Shown: positions 1 through 41,918, counted from the stretch's first letter. The stretch: DNA of 64,000 bases from an uncultured Clostridia bacterium (GCA_947630065.1 CANRGE010000001.1:18840-82839); one strand, 5' to 3'. Notes: generated by a model not told the origin, from the sequence alone. Numbers and translations are program-made.

Positions 1-110
1 CATATAATCCAGTATGTATTTTTTCCATTTTTGTCATCATTCATATCTCCTTATAGCAAGAAACAAATAATCAATTTTTTATCGCCGTATTCGATGCTTT
101 TGCTTCCATT

Positions 111-647
111 TTAAATAAGCCTTTCGCCATCTGCTGTTAAATAATAATCTCCATTATCATCAATTTCTAAGCAAATTTGTGGAGTAATTATAATTTCCTC
201 ACCATTGCCTTTAATGTGTATACTTTTTATACTATAATTTTCGCCATAGTTGCGAATAACATTATAGTCTGTGCCGAACCTATTGTTAACATTGCTGTAA
301 CGGACGTAATATTTAGACTTACTACTTTTCCAATTTGGAATATAATCTGAACAATACATATCATAAAAACGTTCTGTTTTTAATAAAAACTTAATTTTTT
401 CAAGAACTTCATTTGCACGTTCTTCTGTATGAAAATAATCATTATTTTCAAAACATGAAATGTCATAATCAGTATGTTCTTCACAAGTTTTAGATATATC
501 AAGCTCACCACCTAAAATACGTAGATAATAGTAATATTCTCCAATGGCTTTACGTCTAAAATCAGATTCTTCACTCTGTTTAATTTCTTTTTTTAATTCT
601 TCTAAAGTCTGCTCAATTTGTTTTATTTTCTCTTCTATTTTATTCAT
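111..647 (-). CDS. hypothetical protein, tandem paralog 1 (N-terminal coiled coil)
   Basis: Intact 178-aa ORF with a GGAGA RBS. Shares the block NNxYFHTEERAxExLxKIxFxLKxE...CxDYxPxW with the genes at 794-1288 and 1281-1778. Confidence 0.6.
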   Translation of the reverse strand: MNKIEEKIKQIEQTLEELKKEIKQSEESDFRRKAIGEYYYYLRILGGELDISKTCEEHTDYDISCFENNDYFHTEERANEVLEKIKFLLKTERFYDMYCSDYIPNWKSSKSKYYVRYSNVNNRFGTDYNVIRNYGENYSIKSIHIKGNGEEIIITPQICLEIDDNGDYYLTADGERLI

Positions 648-688
648 AGTATTTCTCCTTTTAGTATTTTATTTTTCTTTACAATATA

Positions 689-717
689 ATTATATCATAA
701 TTTTTTGAAAATTTCAA
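689..717 (-). promoter_or_regulatory. sigma70-type promoter, conserved family copy 1
   Basis: Minus strand: -35 TTGAAA, 17-nt spacer, TGaTATAAT extended -10. About 35 nt upstream of the ATG at 647. Confidence 0.6.
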
Positions 718-793
718 ATATTTTATTCTTACAAATGTATAGTAACTGGTTAAAAAATTCCTACTTTTATTTTTAAAAATTCACAGGCATAAT

Positions 794-1288
794 TTATTCT
801 GCTTGCTATCTTCTAAAATCTTCATTTAATTTATCACAAATAATTTGTGCTGTTTCTCTATTTGGGAAATATACTCTTAAAATACCTCTATTCTTACAAT
901 CCCAATCTATTTTAAATCTTTTCCTTTCACTGTCATAATAGATATAGTATTTCGCCGCCTCTGAATCCCAATTAGGATAATAATTTGGACAATAAGTATC
1001 ATAATATTTTTCTAATTTTAGTAAAAGATTTACTTTATTTGCAACCTCGGCGGCACGTTTAGAATTAGTAAAATAATTATTGTTATCAAAATATGTAGTA
1101 ACATCATTAGTATTTAACCTATAATTATATATCTTGCCAGTATGAGGCTAAGATTTTATTATAAAGAATTGATTTTCAATATTAGGTTGAACTACAAAAT
1201 CTTTATCAAATTCCTTAAAATTTGATTCTGAAATACTTATTTTTTGTTTAGTCTATATAATTCTTTCTTCTAACTCTCTTTTATTCAT
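794..1288 (-). CDS. hypothetical protein, tandem paralog 2 (164 aa, 3 in-frame TAG)
   Basis: Missing from the ORF track because of TAGs. Read-through gives MNKRELEERII(TAG)TKQK...NNNYFTNSKRAAEVANKVNLLLKLEKYYDTYCPNYYPNWDS...NEDFRR(TAG)QAE then TAA at 794. The ATG overlaps the stop of the upstream paralog. Confidence 0.55.
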
Positions 1289-1778
1289 TTGCTATCTCAT
1301 TATTTAATTTATCACAAACTTGTTGAGCAATTGCATAAGATGGAAAATATGTTTTTACATGATGACAAAAAATAGTACTACTATTTACTTTAAATTTTTT
1401 TATTTCAGTGTCATAAGAAATACCATACTTATCTTCATCGTAAGAACTCCAATCTGGTTCATAATCAGGACAAAAGGTATCTTTATAACATTCAAGTTTT
1501 AACATAAAATTGATTTTCTTCAAAATTTCCATAGCTCTTTCTTCTGTATGAAAATAATTATTACTGTTAAAAAAATGTTCATCATAACTATAATTTTCTT
1601 TCCTTCTATCAATATAAAGTCCCGTGTCATCTGCACAAAAACAATAATAAAAATTATCAAGTGGCACATGATTAAAACTTGGTTCTTTAATAGTAGATAA
1701 TTCTTTTTCTAATATTTGTATTTTTTCTTTTAATTCATTTAATTCTTTTGTTATATTATCTATTTTTTGTATACTCAT
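1281..1778 (-). CDS. hypothetical protein, tandem paralog 3
   Basis: ORF 1281-1799. Preferred start is the ATG at 1778 (MSIQKID), preceded by GGAGGA. Same C-terminal motif family. Confidence 0.6.
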   Translation of the reverse strand: MSIQKIDNITKELNELKEKIQILEKELSTIKEPSFNHVPLDNFYYCFCADDTGLYIDRRKENYSYDEHFFNSNNYFHTEERAMEILKKINFMLKLECYKDTFCPDYEPDWSSYDEDKYGISYDTEIKKFKVNSSTIFCHHVKTYFPSYAIAQQVCDKLNNEIANE

Positions 1779-2475
1779 TATTATCCTCCATTTTAGCATT
1801 TTCTATTCTTGTTTTAGCAACCTAAAAATATTTTTCATTTAATTCTATTCCAATAAAATCTCTGTTAGTATTTATACAAGCAATACCTGTTGAACCACTT
1901 CCCATACAATTATCAAGAACAACTTCTCCTTCTTGTGTATAAGTTTTAATTAAATATTCAAGTAGTGGCACAGGTTTCTATGTTAGGTGTAAAGAACCTC
2001 TACATACTTTAGAATATTTTAATAATGTAATAGGTTGTTTATATTCGTAGGTTTTTTCATATTTTTTTCCTATTTCTTGCTGTTTTATAGGATAGACTTC
2101 CGTAGGTTTATTACCACCTTTTTTAATAGGCTTATCTCTTTTTATTAACTAAGGAAAATAAGGCAGACGCCCCTTAGAAAACACACTAATAGTTTCTATC
2201 TAACGCATAGGTTGAATTTTTGCGTTGACCATTCCACTTGGAATAACTTTATCCCAATACCAATCATATTTATAATTTTTTAAATTTGATATTCTAAGTT
2301 TACTACTGAATGGTTCACTACCAAAAAGAACTATTGCAGTATTCTTTTTTACTATTCTATTGTATTCAGTCCATAAAGGTTCAAAAGGTATTACATTATC
2401 CCATTTACAAGAAATCGTGCCATAAGGCAAATCACACAATATCATATCAATAGAATCATCTGGTATCATTTTCAT
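1756..2475 (-). CDS. DNA methyltransferase (N4/N6 family), 4 in-frame TAG
   Basis: Starts MKMIPDDSIDMILCDLPYG (DPPY-like motif). Read-through continues ...SLHLT(TAG)KPVPLLEYLI...VVLDNCMGSGSTGIACINTNRDFIGIELNEKYF(TAG)VAKTRI, ending at TAA 1756. The TAG at 1978-1980 sits where the paralog at 27190-28119 has Q in HPTQKP. Confidence 0.8.
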
Positions 2476-2523
2476 TAGTTCTAAACAATCTCCTCTTAAT
2501 AGCTACAATAAATCATCTCCTTC

Positions 2524-2832
2524 TTATTCTTTTTTAATATTATTATAATGTTTTTCTATTCTCTTAAAAACATTATCAGCAGTTAATTCACCTACTACAC
2601 TATCAATTTCATATTCTTCATCAGTTAATAATCCCATGATTTCTATTAAATCTTTTTCATGTCCATAAGAAAAAAAATGTTGAACTGCACTTAAAATTCT
2701 ATCAGTTTCATTTGGATAAAGAACCTGAAAACCATCATAAATACAATTAAATTTATAAGGTATTCCTGCCTCAGATAACATCTTAGCAAGTTTATATATT
2801 TCAGTATATTGATTTTCTTTAAAATCTTCCAT
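2524..2832 (-). CDS. hypothetical protein
   Basis: Intact 102-aa ORF, GGAGA RBS, TAA stop. Confidence 0.5.
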   Translation of the reverse strand: MEDFKENQYTEIYKLAKMLSEAGIPYKFNCIYDGFQVLYPNETDRILSAVQHFFSYGHEKDLIEIMGLLTDEEYEIDSVVGELTADNVFKRIEKHYNNIKKE

Positions 2833-3330
2833 TATTTATATCTCCTTTTAATTAACATTTTATATTTTATTTTGTCACTTCATACAATTCTTAATAATTT
2901 CTTTTAATGTACATTTTTTATCAATTAAATAATTTCCTTTTCCTTCCAAAATATCATTCAATACTTTTTCTAAATCATCAATATGAATATCCGTTGTACT
3001 TGCTATATTTTTTTTCGTTCAGTTTAAAATCAACAGTCACAAGATTCATTACATCTTTGCCTTCCATATCCATAATAACAGTATTTTTATAATTATCATA
3101 ATCAGGGTCTTTTGTGATTACAACAGCCACTTTTCTATATATCCATCAAGTGTGATATGCTCATTTGACCCCATATCTTTTATTATATTTTTCACTTTTT
3201 CTGTTAGATAATTTTGCATTGTAACCTCCAATTTAGACCTTTTATTAAATTTAATTTATTAGATTTTTGTTTAATAATATACTTTTATAAAAGTTTATCT
3301 TTAATTTTATGATTTCTATAATTAAAATAA

Positions 3331-10400: not shown

Positions 10401-12973
10401 ATATTTAGGTATATTTGCAAGAATTTTTGTTATTGTTGGACTACATAAATTATATTTATCTGCTACTTGTTTTATTGTCATAGGTTGAGATAAATAATAT
10501 TTTATAATTTCTTGCTTTAATTCTTCTGTTATAATTTTACTTGGCATTATTCATCTCCTTTAAAATATTTTTGTTAAAACTTAGACTTTCACCGATTTTG
10601 CTCGATTTTTTCTAAAAAATTTCTTTTTTAGACAACCATACATTTTAGCTGATTTCCAGAGCGGCTTTGTAGAGAATTTAGGTTGTGATACATTCCTTCA
10701 ACTGCTTGGTCTAATTCCTTTTGTGTCATATCAAGTGCATATTGATAACTTCCTTTGTCATCATAAATATAAGTATCTGATATACTGTATTTGTCAGAGT
10801 CTTCTTTTGAAATACTAATTTCCTTTTTATCTTTCGCTATATATTTTAGCCCATCACAATAGTGCTTATAGAATGATTTTCTTACATAAGGAATCATTGT
10901 CCAATCTAAATGAGTAGCTGAAACTCCACCAAACTGATTTAACGATTGTAATTGAAAAATTACTGCTATTAGTTGAAAAGCCGTTTCGATACTATTAGCT
11001 GGACGTATATCTGTTTGACGTGTGTTAAATCCCTTAGCCAGCAAATCATCGAACGGGACAGATAAACAATTGTGTGATACATAATTATTTACAATAAACC
11101 AGTGTGATAATGTTTCTAAATCATATACATCTTCTTTTAAAGGCTCTGTTGTAATTGATATAATTTTTGTTTCATTAAAATTATTACTAATACCCATATA
11201 AGCATAAGAATCATTATATTTGAATGTATTTAATTCAGATTGTAAATTATAAACATCATCAGTTCGACCCACTGTTAAATTGAAACAATCATAATTTCTT
11301 GTTCCTGTTTTTCCTCTAATTTGATAGGTACTACCTTTTTTATTTATCAATGTTATGTGAGAAACATAGCCTAATTCCTTTAACATCATTGCTAATTGTT
11401 GCAAATAAGATTCACAGCAAGAAGTATAAGTTATTCCTCTACTTGTTACACTACCATCAGTATCTATACAAGCTGATAAATAAGCTAATTTTATTTTCTT
11501 ATTACCATTTAATACAAAATTAGGAACTGATATATCTCCTGCACCATTCTTCTTTGCTCCTGCAAAATTCTTAAATAATTTTACAATTATTCTTGAATCA
11601 TCTGTTACACGTATACAAGGTGAAGTGTGCCATTCTTTTGCATAAGATTTATTAAGATGCTTACCAAAAACAGCCTCATAACATTTTACAAAATCATCTA
11701 TTAGTTCTTCATTTATATTAGTAAATGTTAGAGAAAAAGTACTACTCTTTTCATTAATATATACACCACCATCTGCATATATATAGGCATATATTTTTGC
11801 AAGCTCAGGAGAATAAGGTATATATAATGGATATTCATTTTTACTACCACAGCTTTTAATTTTCAAAGAAGAAATAACATCAAAAGACAACGGATATTCT
11901 TTTGTAATTTTCTTAAAATCATTTAATTTTAATGTCAATGATGATGGCGGCAATTCAAAATTATGTTCTTTTGCAAAATCTGAAAATACTATATTATATT
12001 TAAATCTCAAATAATGTCTTAACACAGATAAGTTAGTAATTCTCAAATCTATTTGTTCATCATTTAATTGAGTTAAATCCAAAAAGCTACTCGCTATCTC
12101 TTCCTCTGATAAAGTTAAATTTTCTATATCTAAAAGACAATCACCTTTTTTTAGGTCTTTTACTTCTTTTAGCACTTCTTTACCATTCTCTATTATAGGT
12201 AATCTATGCTCACCAGTTAATTTTATTGGTATTCCAGAACGAGTTTTGATTGTATACAATAGTTCTTTGTCTTTCGGCGACCTTTTTGTAATAGATATTA
12301 GTTTTGTCCAGCCATCACGTGATAAAATAGAATAATTATCATTTTCGATAATAGCTATTTGATTTGTTTTAAGTAAAAACCTGTTTGCCAAATCCTCAAT
12401 TTTTATTGTTTCTATTTCATTATTATGTTTAACTTTAATAAATGATTTTCCTATAGTACAATTGTGTGAACCTATAGCATAACTATCTAAGTCATGAATG
12501 TAAATCTCATTATTTATATGATTATTTTTAGACATTTCTGACATACAGTTATCTAACGCATATTGTTTAAGAACCGTATTATTAACAGCTCCAACTCGTC
12601 CTCCAAAAGACCTTTCATCAACATTAGCGTTCTGATTTTCTACAATTTTTGCACCAATTTTATCACTAATTTCTTTCATAAGTTTAGAATTAGATTCTCT
12701 AACTCTTGTTCTATCATTACGATAGATGATAAAAGCTTTAGCAATATCCTTTCTATTACTTTGCATTAGCTTTTTTTCAATTAAATTTTGAATTTCTTCA
12801 ACTTCAATATTTGTTTCTTTTTTATTTTTTATTTCTGCTGCAATTTTTTCAGCAAGCTCTAAAGTTTTCTTATCCAAAATGGTATCAACAGCTAATGTCG
12901 CTTTGTTAATTGATGAGATAATTTTCTTTTCATCAAAAGCAACCTATCTACCATCTCTTTTAATTACATACAT
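6825..12973 (-). CDS. nrdD: anaerobic ribonucleoside-triphosphate reductase, split into 6 exons by 5 group I introns and carrying an intein
   Basis: Exons: 12973-10647 (intein 12460-11069), 9534-9231, 8948-8625, 8370-8212, 7923-7533, 6919-6825. Joining restores VIKRDGR(TAG)VAFD, IHDLDSYAIGSHN|CLSVPFDDLL, SGNQL|PFTSINYGT, STMG|CRTANGW, TLAVG|QLGLAETL, GVYYTP|AENLCF and RRVTG|YLTGDYKTAFNEGKQAEVEERVKH. Segment lengths sum to a whole number of codons (about 735 aa). Confidence 0.85.
6920..7532 (-). mobile_element. group I intron 5 of nrdD (613 nt, HNH ORF)
   Basis: The 5' exon ends ...ACGGGGT and the intron ends ...AAAAATG (terminal G). Splicing gives GGG T|AT TTA, which is G-Y-L of the glycyl-radical motif. 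Confidence 0.7.
7924..8211 (-). mobile_element. group I intron 4 of nrdD (288 nt, no ORF)
   Basis: The exon ends ...TATACTCCT and the intron ends ...GGGTATAAATG. The junction restores YYTP|AENL. GC-rich structured interior containing CGACTAT. Confidence 0.7.
8371..8624 (-). mobile_element. group I intron 3 of nrdD (254 nt, no ORF)
   Basis: The exon ends ...GCGGTGGGT and the intron ends ...GGGTATAAATG. Its last 47 nt are identical to intron 4. Confidence 0.7.
8949..9230 (-). mobile_element. group I intron 2 of nrdD (282 nt, no ORF)
   Basis: The exon ends ...ACAATGGGT and the intron ends ...AAACACG. The junction restores MG|CR at the active-site Cys. Confidence 0.7.
9535..10646 (-). mobile_element. 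group I intron 1 of nrdD (1112 nt, LAGLIDADG ORF)
   Basis: The exon ends ...AATCAGCT and the intron ends ...CATAACCG. CT|A CCG TTC restores SGNQL-PFTS. Confidence 0.75.
9729..10547 (-). CDS. LAGLIDADG homing endonuclease (double motif), 2 in-frame TAG
   Basis: Track ORFs 10242-10547, 9996-10226 and 9729-9944 share one frame and are separated only by TAGs at 10242 and 9996. Motifs YFLGLLITDGNV and LIRGIFDGDGSI. True stop is TAA at 9729. Confidence 0.8.
11069..12460 (-). mobile_element. intein (464 aa) with LAGLIDADG endonuclease domain in NrdD
   Basis: Begins C-TIGKSF after ...GSHN and ends ...VYDLETLSHWFIVNNYVSHN, followed by +1 Cys (CLSVPFDD). Block B is LTGEHRL. Endonuclease motifs IYAYIYADGGVY and LSACIDTDGSV. 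Confidence 0.85.
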
Positions 12974-21188: not shown

Positions 21189-22904
21189 TTAAATCATATC
21201 TCCTATATTTAAGTCTTTAACAGTTTTAATTTGGTCTACTTCATTTTCAAAAGCATCTGTTATAAAAGAATTATTTTCAATATTATCTTGTGATTCTAAA
21301 TTATTCTTAATCATTGAGGTAAAATTGTTAAGTACTACATCTACACTATCATTTTTAAGTTTTTCATTATTATAATAATTTTCTAATTCAATCATTTCTT
21401 TAGTTTTTGTGATTTCAAAATCTATAATTCTTAATTCCTCTATTGGTTCATTATTGGGAGTAGTAACAAAAATATCTTCTCTTCTACACGTTCCCAAATC
21501 ATTATAGCCCCAGAGTCTTATCTAAGTCCAACGACCTCTTCTGTTCTTAAAAATATCTATTACAATATTAGGTTTATAACCAAAATTCTAACTAAATTCA
21601 GAAACTAATTTTAATTCTGATTGTGATGGTCTTGACATTATACACGCAAAATCAACTAAGTTTACAATCATTTTTGCGCTTTGAATTTGGTGATAATCTC
21701 TAAATCCACCATCTTCATTATCATTAGATATTTGAGTTGATGTCATAATAAAAGCATTTAATTCTACGGCAAGATTTTTTAAAGTTGTAGTAAAAAGTCT
21801 AAGACATACATATTCTGCTAAATGTAAATCCCTATATTCATTTAACATTGCAGGAGAGCTAAAAATGTAATCATAGAAAAAATATTGCACTCCTTTTTGT
21901 AGATTATAACGTCTAAAAAGATTTTTTATAACAGAAGCACAAGGGTCAGGAACTCTCACTAAATAAAAATTATCATTATATTTTTCCATGATTTGAATAG
22001 CTTTTGCTATTCTATCCGAATCAGCTAAATCAAAAGTACCATAAAGAAAACATTCTTCATTTATACCTGTAAGCCAAGATAAAATCATAGTTTGTATTTC
22101 AGATATATCTTGTTCTGTAGAAACATAACAAATTTTTTCACAATGTCCTGTTGCTACCCATTGATTTTCTATTGTATCATATCTAATTGGATAAGCTAAA
22201 TTACAACAATCTCCAACCATTGTACGTGATTTTCCTACACCACTTGATGCTGAACGTAAATAAAGTTTACCTAATCTTGCCCCTCTTGTAATTGTATTAA
22301 AAATTTCACCTTGAAGTGGTAAACCAATTTCAGGTTTTATTTCTAAGCTATTTAATAATTCTTTAACTCCTTCACCAGCTCTTACCTCCTCTATTTCTTG
22401 ATTAGAGGAATATTTATCTTCTAAAACAGCTACTTCACTCTTTAATCTATTTATTATATCATTAGGTTTAAGTTCATCAAATTTCTGATTTATTTTTGTA
22501 TAATCAGTATCTAAAGGATTCTCGCAATAAAATTGTGATATATCTCTTCCTGATTTTTGTAGCTCTCTTAATAACGCAAATTTTTTAAAGGTATTATAAT
22601 AATAATTAAAATTGCTAATTTCTGCATAAGTTTCACAATCCTATAGCATTTGTATACCTTTTTCATTTTGCATTAACTGCGCCGCCAAAGCGTTATCCTA
22701 TAAATATTGGTCTACATCTATTGTATGAATTTTTTCAGCACCATTGATATATAAATTATAGATAGCTGAAAATATATATCTATCTAATTGCCGTGGAAAA
22801 TCATTAGGTTCAATCTAATATTTATCTATATCATTTAAAATAAGTGGTTTTTGCATTAAAGAACCTAACACCTAAATTATTATTTTACGAGGTGTTTCTA
22901 TCAA
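21189..22904 (-). CDS. dnaB: DnaB-type replicative helicase (571 aa, 6 in-frame TAG)
   Basis: N-terminal ...(TAG)VLGSLMQKPLIL...FPRQLDRYIFSAIYNLY, Walker A LRSASSGVGKSRT, and C-terminal FKNRRGRW. TTG start 7 nt after GGAGGA. ORFs 21588-22220 and 21189-21497 are in frame. Confidence 0.85.
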
Positions 22905-24957: not shown

Positions 24958-25102
24958 ACCTTACTTCATGAAGTATTTTTCATATTAGAAAATTTAATTA
25001 TAATAAAACAATAAACACAAGCGTTCCAACAATTTGTTTTATCAATTTAACTTTACTATTTACTTTTAAAGGTAAGCTGAAAGTTATTAAAGCTGACCCA
25101 AG

Positions 25103-25176
25103 TTACGGTGGAAGGATTTGAACCTTCGGAGTGACGGAGTTAGAGTCCGCTGCCTTACCCGCTTGGCTACACCGTA
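25103..25176 (-). tRNA. suppressor tRNA, anticodon CUA (reads UAG), tRNA-Gln-like body
   Basis: TACGGTG TA GCCAAGCGGGTAAGGC A GCGGA CTCTAAC TCCGT CACTCC GAAGGTTCAAATCCTTC CACCGTA A. The anticodon is at 25141-25143. U1-A72, the D arm and the anticodon-stem GGA/TCC core match the tRNA-Gln(UUG) at 30050-30121. Confidence 0.85.
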
Positions 25177-31828: not shown

Positions 31829-31917
31829 CGGTGTGGGTGAGATTTGAACTCATACATCAATAGCTGATTACTGACGGTTTAGCAAACCGCTGCCTTACCA
31901 ATTAGGCTTACCACACC
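31829..31917 (-). tRNA. tRNA-Ser (anticodon GCU), class II
   Basis: Acceptor GGTGTGG/CCACACC, anticodon arm GCGGT-TTGCTAA-ACCGT, long variable arm with ATCA/TGAT stem, T loop TTCAAAT. Confidence 0.8.
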
Positions 31918-31931
31918 TTGTAAAATGATAA

Positions 31932-32031
31932 TGTGGTATGCAAGTCCTGCCCTTGCTGGTCGTTACCTATCGAATAAACGACCTATTTTCGATAGGTTGA
32001 ATATGCGTCATCTCGCCGCATTGATACCACA
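31932..32031 (-). ncRNA. structured RNA candidate X1 (closing stem, two hairpins, H-type pseudoknot)
   Basis: Minus strand: TGTGGTAT...ATACCACA (8 bp), ATGCG/CGCAT hairpin, CCTATCGAA/TTCGATAGG (9 bp) whose loop GGTCGTT pairs with downstream AACGACC (7 bp), and GCAAG-GGCAGGA-CTTGC next to the 3' closing strand. GC-rich island in AT-rich DNA. Confidence 0.45.
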
Positions 32032-32082
32032 TATAATAAACTATTTTACTTTATAACTATTGATTATATGATTTTTATTTAG

Positions 32083-32242
32083 TGGAGCGCACGAGCCTCG
32101 AACTCGCAACCTCTGTCAGCTAACAGCGTGCCTATCCGCGACAATCTACATACTTATGAAACGCTACTTTCAAAGTTTCGCCAAGCTGCTCCCCTGCATT
32201 ACAGTGAGTCTTATACTTGTTTTGTCTATACACCCGCGCCCC
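32083..32242 (-). ncRNA. tRNA-Ala-like / tmRNA-like element X3 (G3-U70 acceptor, T arm, about 107-nt insert, 4-nt loop in place of anticodon loop)
   Basis: 5' GGGGCGC pairs with 3' GCGCTCC-A, including a G3-T70 wobble. T arm GCGAG-TTCGAGG-CTCGT, D-like GCG-GATAGGCA-CGC, stem CTGTT-AGCT-GACAG. About 107 nt separate the 5' acceptor strand from the D arm. Confidence 0.45.
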
Positions 32243-32245
32243 AAA

Positions 32246-32314
32246 TGGTACTGATAGTAGGACTTGAACCTACACATTTGATATAATCATTGTTCTTCAT
32301 TAAACTATATCAGC
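32246..32314 (-). ncRNA. tRNA-like element X2 with encoded CCA and a 3-nt loop in place of the anticodon loop
   Basis: GCTGATA TA GTTT-AATGAA-GAAC A (A)TGAT-TAT-ATCA(A) ATGT GTAGG-TTCAAGT-CCTAC TATCAGT A CCA. Standard cloverleaf spacing except the anticodon loop is 4 nt short. Ends 3 nt before X3. Confidence 0.45.
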
Positions 32315-33149: not shown

Positions 33150-33460
33150 TGCAGGAAAAGGGACTTGAACCCTCACGACCGAAGTCAATGGATTTTCGTA
33201 CCACTCTATGTCACCATAGCCATTTTACAATGTTGTGGTCTGGAGTACGTCTTTACCATATCTTATGACTTAGGTAGTTGGTGTATACTCTCTACACACG
33301 GTTAAAAACCTTGCACGGCGTTCTCTATTCGCCTTCGCCGTTTTAGCCAACTTCTACTCTTAGCGTTTCCGCTAAGGCACTCTCTATTTTTTAAATAGTA
33401 TTACTTAAAGTAACAGAATAGATTAAAGTCCATTGCGTCTGCCTATTCCGCCATTCCTGC
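33150..33460 (-). tRNA. tRNA-Leu (anticodon UAA) interrupted by a group I intron in the anticodon loop
   Basis: 5' exon 33460-33426: GCAGGAA TG GCGGAATAGGCAGACGC A ATGGA CTT. 3' exon 33196-33150: AAAA TCCAT TGACTTCGGTCGT GAGGG-TTCAAGT-CCCTT TTCCTGC A. Joined loop is CTTAAAA. The mature class II tRNA is 82 nt. Confidence 0.85.
33197..33425 (-). mobile_element. group I intron (229 nt) between U34 and A35 of tRNA-Leu(UAA)
   Basis: Follows a U and ends in G (…GAGTGGTACG). Same insertion point as the classical cyanobacterial and plastid tRNA-Leu intron. GC-rich paired segments such as GCCTTAGCG-GAAA-CGCTAAG and GGCG..CGCC. Confidence 0.8.
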
Positions 33461-33526: not shown

Positions 33527-33596
33527 TTTTCTTGGTGGGAGTCGAACCCACATTACCTACTTTATGTAGGTATCCTTCCATTTAGACCACAAGAAA
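33527..33596 (-). ncRNA. unusual 70-nt tRNA-like gene (anticodon loop CAUAAAG)
   Basis: Perfect acceptor TTTCTTG/CAAGAAA, T arm GTGGG-TTCGACT-CCCAC, anticodon stem ACCTA/TAGGT. The loop has A at position 33 and would present UAA on a class I body with a 3-nt variable loop. Confidence 0.45.
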
Positions 33597-40715: not shown

Positions 40716-41918
40716 TCAATTACCAGACAACTCATCTAAATAATCAGCTATTTGTGCTGTTTTAGACCTCTCTACTTTTGTAAGTCTAACTGTGGCAAAA
40801 TTTTCAGCATAAGGAGAATTAGCTAACTATAAAATACTCCTTAGACCATTTCTATTCTTAAATATATCTGAATCTATTTGCTATAAACTTCCATCAAAGA
40901 ATATTCTTGAATTTTTTCCAACTCTACCTATTAAAAGTTTAACATGATTTTCGTCCAAATTCTATGCTTCATTAACTAAAATAATTGAATTATCAAAATT
41001 TCTTCCTCTCATATAAGCAATAGGCACAATTTCTAAACGCCCATCTTGCATTAGTCGTACAACTTCATCAATTCCAATTAAATCAACTAAAGTTCCAATC
41101 ATTGGTGTAATTTTTTCAAAACTTGTACCAGGCAAGAACCCTAATTCCATAGAATTTTTTACATAGTTATTATTAGGTATATAAACAATTTTATTTATTT
41201 CATCATTATATAACGATTCTAAAGCTAAATTATTAACTAAAAAAGATTTTCCCACTCCTTGTGCGCCGCCAGCGTAAAGAATTGTTACATTAGGATTATG
41301 AAGGGCATCAAATAAGCATCTTTGTTCTGGATTTTTGGGTGTAATTTTTGTAATCCATTTATTTCTAATAGAACCAAATCCAACTTCTTCTAATTTTCCT
41401 TTTCTGTAAACATAAATTTTAATAACTTCACCATCTGGGTCTTTAACAATTAAATATTGATTCTCAACCATTGAAAACTAAGGCGGCAAAACATTGTTTT
41501 CTAATAATTCTTGTAAGCTATTAGAATACATATCTAAAACGTCCCAATAAAGAACACCTGTATAAACTTCATCATTACCATATCCAGAAGTTCTTATATT
41601 ATTAGCAGTAGCCTTAACTTTCAAGTAAACATCATTTGTTATAAGTTCACCCGCATAGCTTTTAGTTAATTCAATTAACTTATCATCAACTTTCTTATTT
41701 TCATTATCAAGAGAAAGATTAAAAATTATATTAGTTAAATTTCTTGATATAGCTATTGCCGCTCTCCGCGCCTTAAAAGCAATTTCTGGATTTTGATTAA
41801 GTTTTAAGCCATCTAATTCTTTAAGAACATCTCCCGCTATAATAAGGTCAGGTTCTTTAGACAGAATTTGTGGATAATCTAATAAAATACAAGAATCAAC
41901 TATTTTGAATTTACTCAT
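40716..41918 (-). CDS. phoH: PIN-domain + PhoH-like ATPase (400 aa, 4 in-frame TAG)
   Basis: ORFs 41478-41918 (PIN-like) and 40962-41471 (GGAQGVGKSF Walker A, GFLPG, AYMRGRNF) are in frame across a TAG. ILVNEA(TAG)NL matches the canonical DEAQN. Continues GSL(TAG)QIDS to TGA 40716. Confidence 0.8.

Follow-up and report, generated by a model that had tools for sequence, protein, structure and literature searches.

A conserved, structured tRNA-like RNA gene without an anticodon loop in a phage tRNA array

Phage tRNA clusters are usually read as sets of tRNAs that serve codon supply or anti-defence, and to our knowledge no function has been assigned since the 1970s to the odd RNAs that are also encoded in them, for which RNAC and RNAD of phage T4 are the classic case. 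RNAC and RNAD are the species 1 and species 2 stable RNAs of the T4 tRNA cluster, and their roles are still unknown (PMC3014915, PMC9697503). The element described here is likewise a small, presumably stable RNA encoded inside a phage tRNA cluster. It covers 160 nt (32083-32242, minus strand) of a 64,000-nt stretch of DNA, hereafter the window, which is part of a large phage genome. Together with the copies on four other phage contigs (L013, L018, L019 and L066), five distinct copies are available for comparison.

Like the element, RNAC (139 nt) lacks an anticodon arm and carries additional hairpins, and its terminal closing stem adjoins a T arm of canonical form (CCGGG-UUCGAAU-CCCGG). It differs in the absence of a CCA end and of an alanine-type acceptor, and the covariance model of the element (R1) does not match rnaC as a whole, but only gives a 17-nt, 4.9-bit match to the T arm (E = 0.65). 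Homology based on the strings GUAAG and GUAGCG was considered and rejected, because GUAG is paired with CUAC in rnaC and its Karamvirus homologues, within a covarying 10-bp stem, which makes the shared GUAGCG superficial. The resemblance between RNAC and the element is one of kind, not of descent. Among known RNAs, the two T4 species come closest to the element in kind, and the 3' end of tRNA-Ala comes closest in sequence.

With canonical tRNA (RF00005), and with tRNA-Ala in particular, the element shares a 7-bp acceptor stem, of which the first four pairs and A73 are as in tRNA-Ala, a 5-nt variable loop, a 5-bp T stem with a UUCRANN loop and the G53-C61 pair, a U at position -1, a location in tRNA arrays and, in three copies, an encoded CCA. 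In contrast to tRNA, an invariant 4-nt loop takes the place of the anticodon loop and the acceptor is separated from the D region by a structured domain, which measures 96 nt, or 60 nt in L066, while the G3:U70 pair of tRNA-Ala is not conserved in the family. The tmRNAs (RF00023), including the reduced jakobid mitochondrial tmRNA without an mRNA-like part, also combine an alanine-type acceptor and T arm with the absence of decoding, and they have a helix that leaves the core after the D-loop-like strand, as helix P2 does in the element. However, the element has no tag frame, no pseudoknots and no match to tmRNA models, carries two small hairpins between the 3' strand of P2 and the T arm, has lost G3:U70 in two of its five copies and coexists with a real tmRNA in L066.

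Other tRNA-shaped, non-decoding modules that are recognised by tRNA-processing enzymes are YrlA (a bacterial and phage Y RNA-like RNA), mascRNA and the 3' tRNA-like structures of plant viruses. In YrlA, unlike in the element, the RNA ends form a Ro-binding stem and the 'acceptor' is closed, whereas the viral structures have pseudoknotted acceptors at genome 3' ends; the Rfam models of YrlA, mascRNA and the viral tRNA-like families gave no match on the element. The element is a new family within a known kind, that of the phage tRNA-cluster small RNAs and tRNA mimics, and no description of such an RNA was found in the literature searched. It provides a covariation-backed example with an alanine-type acceptor end, no anticodon and an extra domain with invariant loops, and thereby a defined RNA through which the role of non-decoding tRNA mimics in phages could be learnt. 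Standard tRNA, tmRNA and Rfam scans miss genes such as this one.

The window and the anatomy of its copy

The window has a G+C content of about 28%, and nearly all of its genes are on the minus strand. These genes encode gyrase A and B, an anaerobic ribonucleotide reductase (NrdD) with an intein, DNA ligase, ThyX, PhoH and helicases, as well as two N6/N4 DNA methyltransferases, an RNA ligase and a DUF932 protein. DNA identical to the window is present in several ENA and Logan assemblies, on contigs of up to 153 kb. A tRNA array spans 24.7-33.6 kb, with ten tRNA genes according to ARAGORN and eleven according to Rfam, all on the minus strand. The element is located within this array, between a tRNA-like gene (32249-32314), which ends in ACCA three bases ahead of G1 of the element, and tRNA-Ser (31829-31917).

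The initial annotation had described a 7-bp acceptor with a G3-U70 wobble, a good T arm, a D-like arm and a tetraloop-capped stem at the place of the anticodon arm, and all of these are found when the minus strand is read. The acceptor is perfect: its 5' strand GGGGCGC (32236-32242) pairs at all seven positions with GCGCUCC (32084-32090), G3 (32240) faces U70 (32086), and the 3' strand continues through the discriminator A73 (32083) into CUA (32080-32090 as a whole). The U at position -1 (32243) is a U in all five copies. The T arm GCGAG-UUCGAGG-CUCGU (32091-32107) has a loop of canonical form and is preceded by an invariant 5-nt equivalent of the variable loop, AGGUU (32108-32112). At the place of the anticodon arm, a stem of 4-5 bp is closed by a 4-nt loop (C-UGUU-AGCU-GACA-G, 32113-32126); this substitute is invariant in the five copies, all of which have AGCU and no 7-nt anticodon loop. 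The D-like element GCG-GAUAGGCA-CGC (32126-32139) comes directly before it.

Between the 5' acceptor strand and the D-like hairpin lie 96 nt, not the approximately 107 nt reported initially. This segment begins with positions 8-16, GGGUGUAUA (32227-32235), which are invariant apart from a G9 to A change in L066. These are followed by the 5' strand of P2, GACAA (32222-32226), which pairs with UUGUC (32140-32144) in a long-range helix that encloses P3 and P4. The P3 arm (32182-32219) consists of an outer helix CAAG/CUUG and an inner hairpin CUC-A-CUGU-AAU-GCAG-GGG, with an internal loop that is GUAAG-like on its 5' side and has the invariant GGGAGCAG on its 3' side. The GGGGAGC that had been taken for a second near-acceptor is in fact the 3' side of helix P3b together with this invariant internal loop. 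The junction between P3 and P4, GCGAAACUU (32173-32181), retains CGAAA in four copies, and the junction between P4 and P2, UAAGUAUGUAGA (32145-32156), contains a conserved UAG(R). Between the two junctions lies the P4 hairpin UGAAA[GUAGCG]UUUCA (32157-32172), with its invariant hexaloop at 32162-32167. A hairpin had been noted here as GAAAC/GUUUC; it exists, but the homologues place it in the register given above.

Three pairings of the D region can be drawn. In Model A, GGGUGUAUA is a single-stranded joiner and the D-like element forms a local 3-bp hairpin (104-106 with 115-117), for which one compensatory change is seen. In Model B, positions G10-U13 of GGGUGUAUA act as the 5' strand of a D stem and pair with 112-115 (G10U11G12U13/G112C113A114Y115), which is possible in all five copies. 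This gives a textbook cloverleaf with a 7-bp acceptor, a 2-nt joiner, a 4-bp D stem, position 26, a 5-bp anticodon stem, a 5-nt variable loop and the T arm, in which the P2 domain interrupts the D loop and a G18G19-like GG comes after it. Model C widens the D-stem pairing to 10-16 with 109-115, stacked on P2, and is the minimum free energy (MFE) fold of L066. In both Models B and C, the D-like element is the remainder of the D loop, with the G18G19-like GG, and the 3' strand of the D stem. Nearest-neighbour energies place Models A and B at most 2.4 kcal/mol apart, and the three models, all of which fit the five sequences, cannot be separated by the data. In addition, a 4-bp contact between the P4 loop (UAGC) and the loop of the anticodon substitute (GCUG) is a possible loop-loop interaction; both loops are invariant.

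The window sequence proves little by itself, because the single-sequence fold of the element is no better than that of shuffles (MFE z-score -0.40) and a scanner for acceptor and T arm also gives some chance matches in this AT-rich window.

Homologues and covariation

A search for homologues with a check for covariation, as proposed in the initial annotation, yielded the four additional copies. The closest DUF932 homologue of the window protein (P0122, 65% identity) led to the 2.6-kb contig L013, where a long-range scan for acceptor and T arm found a copy of 156 nt just downstream of the DUF932 gene. The elements of the window and L013 are 89% identical, whereas the neighbouring DUF932 proteins are only 65% identical. 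The similarity starts at G1 and stops at the discriminator and CUA. The same boundaries, from G1 to N73 plus CCA or CUA, are observed over the family, and the flanks of the copies are unrelated. The copies of L018 and L019 were obtained with a degenerate pattern from JGI metagenomes; their insert is far more diverged, and an encoded CCA closes each of them. In all copies the antisense strand can be read as an open frame, and pseudo-peptides derived from it, used as a query against protein collections, led to an antisense 'protein' on contig L066. The L066 copy measures 126 nt and scores 91 bits with the two-sequence covariance model. CCA is encoded in L018, L019 and L066, and CUA is found in the window and L013.

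The genomic contexts of the copies vary. The L066 copy lies between tRNA-Met and tRNA-Cys, the L019 copy follows directly after tRNA-Gln, and for L018 the nearest detected tRNA is a tRNA-Gln about 600 nt upstream. On L013, where the element follows a protein gene, no tRNA was seen, including in the 114 nt downstream of the element. The array of L066 also contains a tmRNA (1-339, minus strand; RF00023, 84 bits, tag DNVYAYAA*) at about 430 nt from the element copy. Relatives recognised by their RNA ligase, a homologue with 72-77% identity, have genes for a CCA-adding enzyme and RlaP adjoining the ligase; the element was not found within 7 kb of these ligase loci (L006-L012), and it is absent from the loci of more distant DUF932 homologues (L014-L016). 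No useful match to the whole element was obtained in INPHARED with megablast and blastn, and no relative was found in phage GenBank records. IMG/VR gave no relative in a protein-guided scan and five DNA-pattern scans, of which the last two returned only chance or coding matches, and a scan of GTDB genomes gave one chance match only. The 36 nt from the variable loop to the 3' end weakly match annotated phage tRNA-Ala genes at their 3' end (blastn, 86% identity, E = 0.04).

A covariance model (R1) was built from the window and L013 copies with a hand-drawn structure. It aligns all five copies with every helix intact, with scores of 91-207 bits, the diverged copies scoring 91-120 bits. In the five-sequence alignment, which is fitted to our own structural model, 99.5% of the cells are paired, and 18 of the 40 pairs have changed on both sides; this set represents about three lineages, with one or two events per covarying pair. 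None of 500 column shuffles matched the alignment in its percentage of pairing, in the number of pairs or of cells with changes on both sides, or in its covariation score, whereas the count of further pair types was reached by 29 of the 500. When the partner strand was slid by 1-3 columns, pairing amounted to only 32-58%. Since five copies with covariation stand out from both the shuffled and the slid controls, the element is more than a chance arrangement: it is a real, conserved and structured tRNA-like RNA. RNAalifold on two sequences had given a fold without the T arm, which was discarded and replaced by the five-sequence covariation.

The changes are distributed over most of the helices. 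Acceptor pairs 1-4 are fixed apart from 3:70, while pairs 5-7 vary yet stay paired, with pair 6 changed from G-C to C-G in L066. In P2, all five pairs have changed on both sides, giving ACCUG/CAGGU in L018 and L019 and GAGAGG/CCUUUC in L066. In P3, the four outer pairs and two inner pairs covary; the whole arm is missing from L066 and is therefore dispensable. The hexaloop of P4 is identical in the five copies, although four of its five stem pairs have changed on both sides (GCAAAU/GUUUGU in L019, CAAAC/GUUUG in L018 and GCAGG/CCUGU in L066). The middle pair of the D-like hairpin is C-G, U-A or U.G. The T arm has one compensatory change, from G-C to A-U in L013, and this is the only difference among the five copies over the 40 nt that extend from the anticodon-substitute hairpin across the T arm. 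The substitute hairpin itself is invariant, so covariation neither backs nor contradicts its pairing. Features present in all five copies that define the family are the acceptor and T arm, the invariant CUGUUAGCUGACAGAGGUUGC, P2, and P4 with the GUAGCG hexaloop. The insert is no mere spacer, and forms a covariation-supported junction domain in which P2 encloses P3 and P4.

The searches for known RNA classes that had been suggested at the outset were negative on the element. ARAGORN at default settings and Rfam at gathering thresholds gave no match, no Rfam 15 family matched any of the five copies, and at E<=10 on a 1-kb slice no Rfam model, RF00005 included, had a hit on the element. The tmRNA models (RF00023, RF04321, permuted and others) were silent as well, although the same tools detect the tmRNA of L066. 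The element has a tRNA-type 7-bp acceptor stem, a T arm with the UUCGAGG loop and a 3' N73-CCA, with CCA encoded in three of the five copies, yet a decoding tRNA is ruled out by the missing 7-nt anticodon loop and the lack of any model match.

Alanine identity, proposed mimicry and alternative explanations

G1-C72, G2-C71, G3:U70, G4-C69 and A73 are the identity set of the tRNA-Ala minihelix and should suffice for alanylation by AlaRS, whereas G3:C70 abolishes recognition by AlaRS in known systems. The full set occurs in L019, L066 and the window copy. The first four acceptor pairs of the element correspond to those of E. coli tRNA-Ala. Pair 3:70 is G:C in the other two copies, L013 and L018, and position 73 is A in four copies and G in L018. 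Each of the two G:C copies is a close sister of a G:U copy, which indicates that a switch at 3:70 is tolerated; L018 and L019 have about five or six differences (counted from alignments), two of which are at positions 70 and 73. The pair on which the earlier argument for alanylation was built, G3:U70, is thus lacking in L013 and in L018, which also has G73. Alanine charging of the G3:U70 variants, including the window copy, is plausible from these identity elements. With G3:U70 in only three of five copies and G73 in L018, alanylation does not appear to be a conserved requirement of the family.

The explanation that we favour, to which we assign a rough probability of 0.45, is that the element is the gene of a stable, non-decoding tRNA-like RNA from a small, uncatalogued family of phage tRNA arrays, which probably acts by mimicry or binding, and not through obligatory alanylation. 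The element would be co-transcribed with the neighbouring tRNAs and released like a tRNA, by an RNase P cut after the conserved U at position -1, followed by 3' trimming and CCA addition where CCA is not already encoded. An RNA of approximately 160 nt may then accumulate, which would be stable and unable to read codons. In this mimic, the top half (acceptor and T arm) would recruit tRNA-handling factors and provide stability, while the anticodon-substitute hairpin, the T arm and the GUAGCG loop may be the specific surface that a protein or RNA partner contacts. The candidates for this partner, which could be titrated or scaffolded, are a host factor that targets or binds tRNA and a phage enzyme for tRNA repair or maturation. 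The invariance pattern is our reason to favour a mimic by which a tRNA-handling factor is bound, titrated or scaffolded: the 40-nt stretch and the GUAGCG loop remained invariant while P2, P4 and the acceptor were rewritten, which suggests sequence-specific recognition by a partner and not recognition of mere shape. The invariant 3' part could instead reflect recent common descent. Apart from the RNA ligase, no obvious tRNA-binding gene is present among the window proteins scanned.

A more far-reaching, and doubtful, form of mimicry is that of a new class of phage effector, in which the top half of the anticodon-less RNA engages the host tRNA machinery and the invariant loops capture a specific host factor, such as a defence nuclease or transferase that targets tRNA, or the apparatus of trans-translation or aminoacylation. 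The RNA would then serve as an anti-defence or translation-hijacking decoy, with the G3:U70/G3:C70 switch toggling alanylation. About equally unlikely is an alanine-accepting, non-decoding tRNA, charged by AlaRS through G3:U70 and A73, of which the Ala-RNA would act as an amino-acid donor beyond decoding, in tRNA-dependent cell-wall, lipid or peptide transfer, or as a tag-less ribosome-rescue RNA with SmpB and EF-Tu. The identity set in the window, L019 and L066, the CCA encoded in L019 and L066, and the weak match of the 3' 36 nt to phage tRNA-Ala speak for such a role, but the G3:C70 pairs of L013 and L018, the G73 of L018 and the tolerated switch between sisters argue against it. No transferase of the Fem or L/F type, SmpB or AlaRS-like gene turned up in the window proteins that were scanned, and L066 already has a full tmRNA. 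Charging might nevertheless matter more than the mimicry that we favour allows, given the first four pairs, A73 in four of five copies and G3:U70 in three of five. It is even less probable that the element is a processing or punctuation signal of the tRNA array, which directs RNase P and 3' processing or stabilises the polycistronic transcript with no function in trans. For this purpose an acceptor and T-arm minihelix would suffice, which leaves the GUAGCG loop, the anticodon-substitute hairpin and the covarying P2 and P4 unexplained, and the L013 copy follows a protein gene with no tRNA in the 114 nt downstream; the usual position of the element in or near tRNA arrays, the conserved U-1 and the presence of further non-canonical structured RNAs between the window tRNAs would fit such a signal.

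Pseudogenes and their like are far less probable still: a decaying tRNA-Ala pseudogene with an insertion, a spliced intron-containing tRNA or an attP copy of the 3' end of a host tRNA. They could account for the tRNA-Ala-like 3' end, the window contains a tRNA-Leu with a group-I-type insert, and a relaxed ARAGORN run that allows introns (-i) reports a weak 'tRNA-Asp with a 66-nt intron' at this position. However, the anticodon stem implied by this call is poor and is contradicted by the covarying helices, and a 4-nt loop still occupies the anticodon place when the insert is removed. The covariation of the insert helices points to selection on the full RNA, that of both acceptor strands (L066) points to a whole gene and not an attP fragment, and no integrase is located nearby in the window. 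A miniature tmRNA with an insert that encodes a short tag, or a reduced trans-translation RNA, as the initial annotation had suggested, is the least credible of the alternatives and is refuted by the comparison of the copies and by the model searches. The GGGG...CUCCA acceptor with G3:U70 and the position of P2 after the D-loop-like strand loosely recall the tRNA-like domain of tmRNA, and the window copy has candidate frames, such as AAWRNFESSVS*. The same annotation had found no convincing tag ORF, and this is borne out by the homologues: the copies of the window and L013 differ by 1-nt indels and L066 lacks P3, which breaks every candidate frame, so that none is conserved. In addition, the element contains no tmRNA-type set of pseudoknots, ARAGORN -m at relaxed thresholds returned only implausible permuted models that span neighbouring tRNAs, leaving the element itself without a call, and a genuine tmRNA is encoded on the same contig as the L066 copy.

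Other unusual genes in the window and its relatives

The window and its relatives hold several more such genes that standard scans miss. Directly upstream of the element, the 66-nt gene at 32249-32314 (minus strand; Rfam tRNA, 50 bits; CCA encoded) has the anticodon arm UGAU-UAU-AUCA with a 3-nt loop and is a second anticodon-less tRNA-like gene. On the other side of the element, a 101-nt RNA (31930-32030, minus strand) has a 9-bp closing stem (UGUGGUAUC.../...AUACCACA), a fold z-score of -4.4 and three internal hairpins, one of which is T-arm-like without the T-loop consensus; it has no match in Rfam. A tRNA-Leu(UAA)-like gene (33151-33460, minus strand) with a long variable arm and a good T arm has its anticodon loop split after CUU by an insert of approximately 235 nt that ends in G. 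This is where the group I intron of tRNA-Leu is classically found. The gene was not called by ARAGORN and has no Rfam match at E<=1. The gene at 33527-33596 (minus strand) is called Leu(UAA) by ARAGORN, and its anticodon region CCUAC-AUAAA-GUAGG closes a loop of 5 nt, or one of 7 nt in which position 33 is A; judged by this loop, it is probably not a normal decoder.

A tRNA with the anticodon CUA (amber suppressor) is encoded at 25102-25176 (minus strand). The PhoH and DnaB frames (40962-41471 and 21588-22220, both minus strand) are broken only by in-frame TAG codons, with three in PhoH before the first TGA, and the phage apparently reads TAG as an amino acid. A link between this recoding and the UAG triplets in the loops of the element was considered and dropped, as three or four UAGs per 160 nt are about the chance expectation.

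Multiple odd tRNA-like genes are also found on L018. A tRNA with an 8-nt anticodon loop (ARAGORN anticodon 'ggaa') is located in the region 2175-3186 (minus strand), and at least three further odd tRNA-like genes that end in CCA are present (2933-3014, about 2410-2525 and about 2175-2245). Non-canonical tRNA-like genes seem to be common in these arrays. On L019, a gene for an IS605-type OrfB/TnpB protein (654-1760, plus strand), with a Cas12f1-like TNB domain, precedes the element and tRNA-Gln by about 580 nt, which is probably a coincidence. Inteins are found in two proteins: the NrdD of the window (10628-12877, minus strand), in which the intein has a LAGLIDADG domain, and a C5 DNA methyltransferase encoded on L018.
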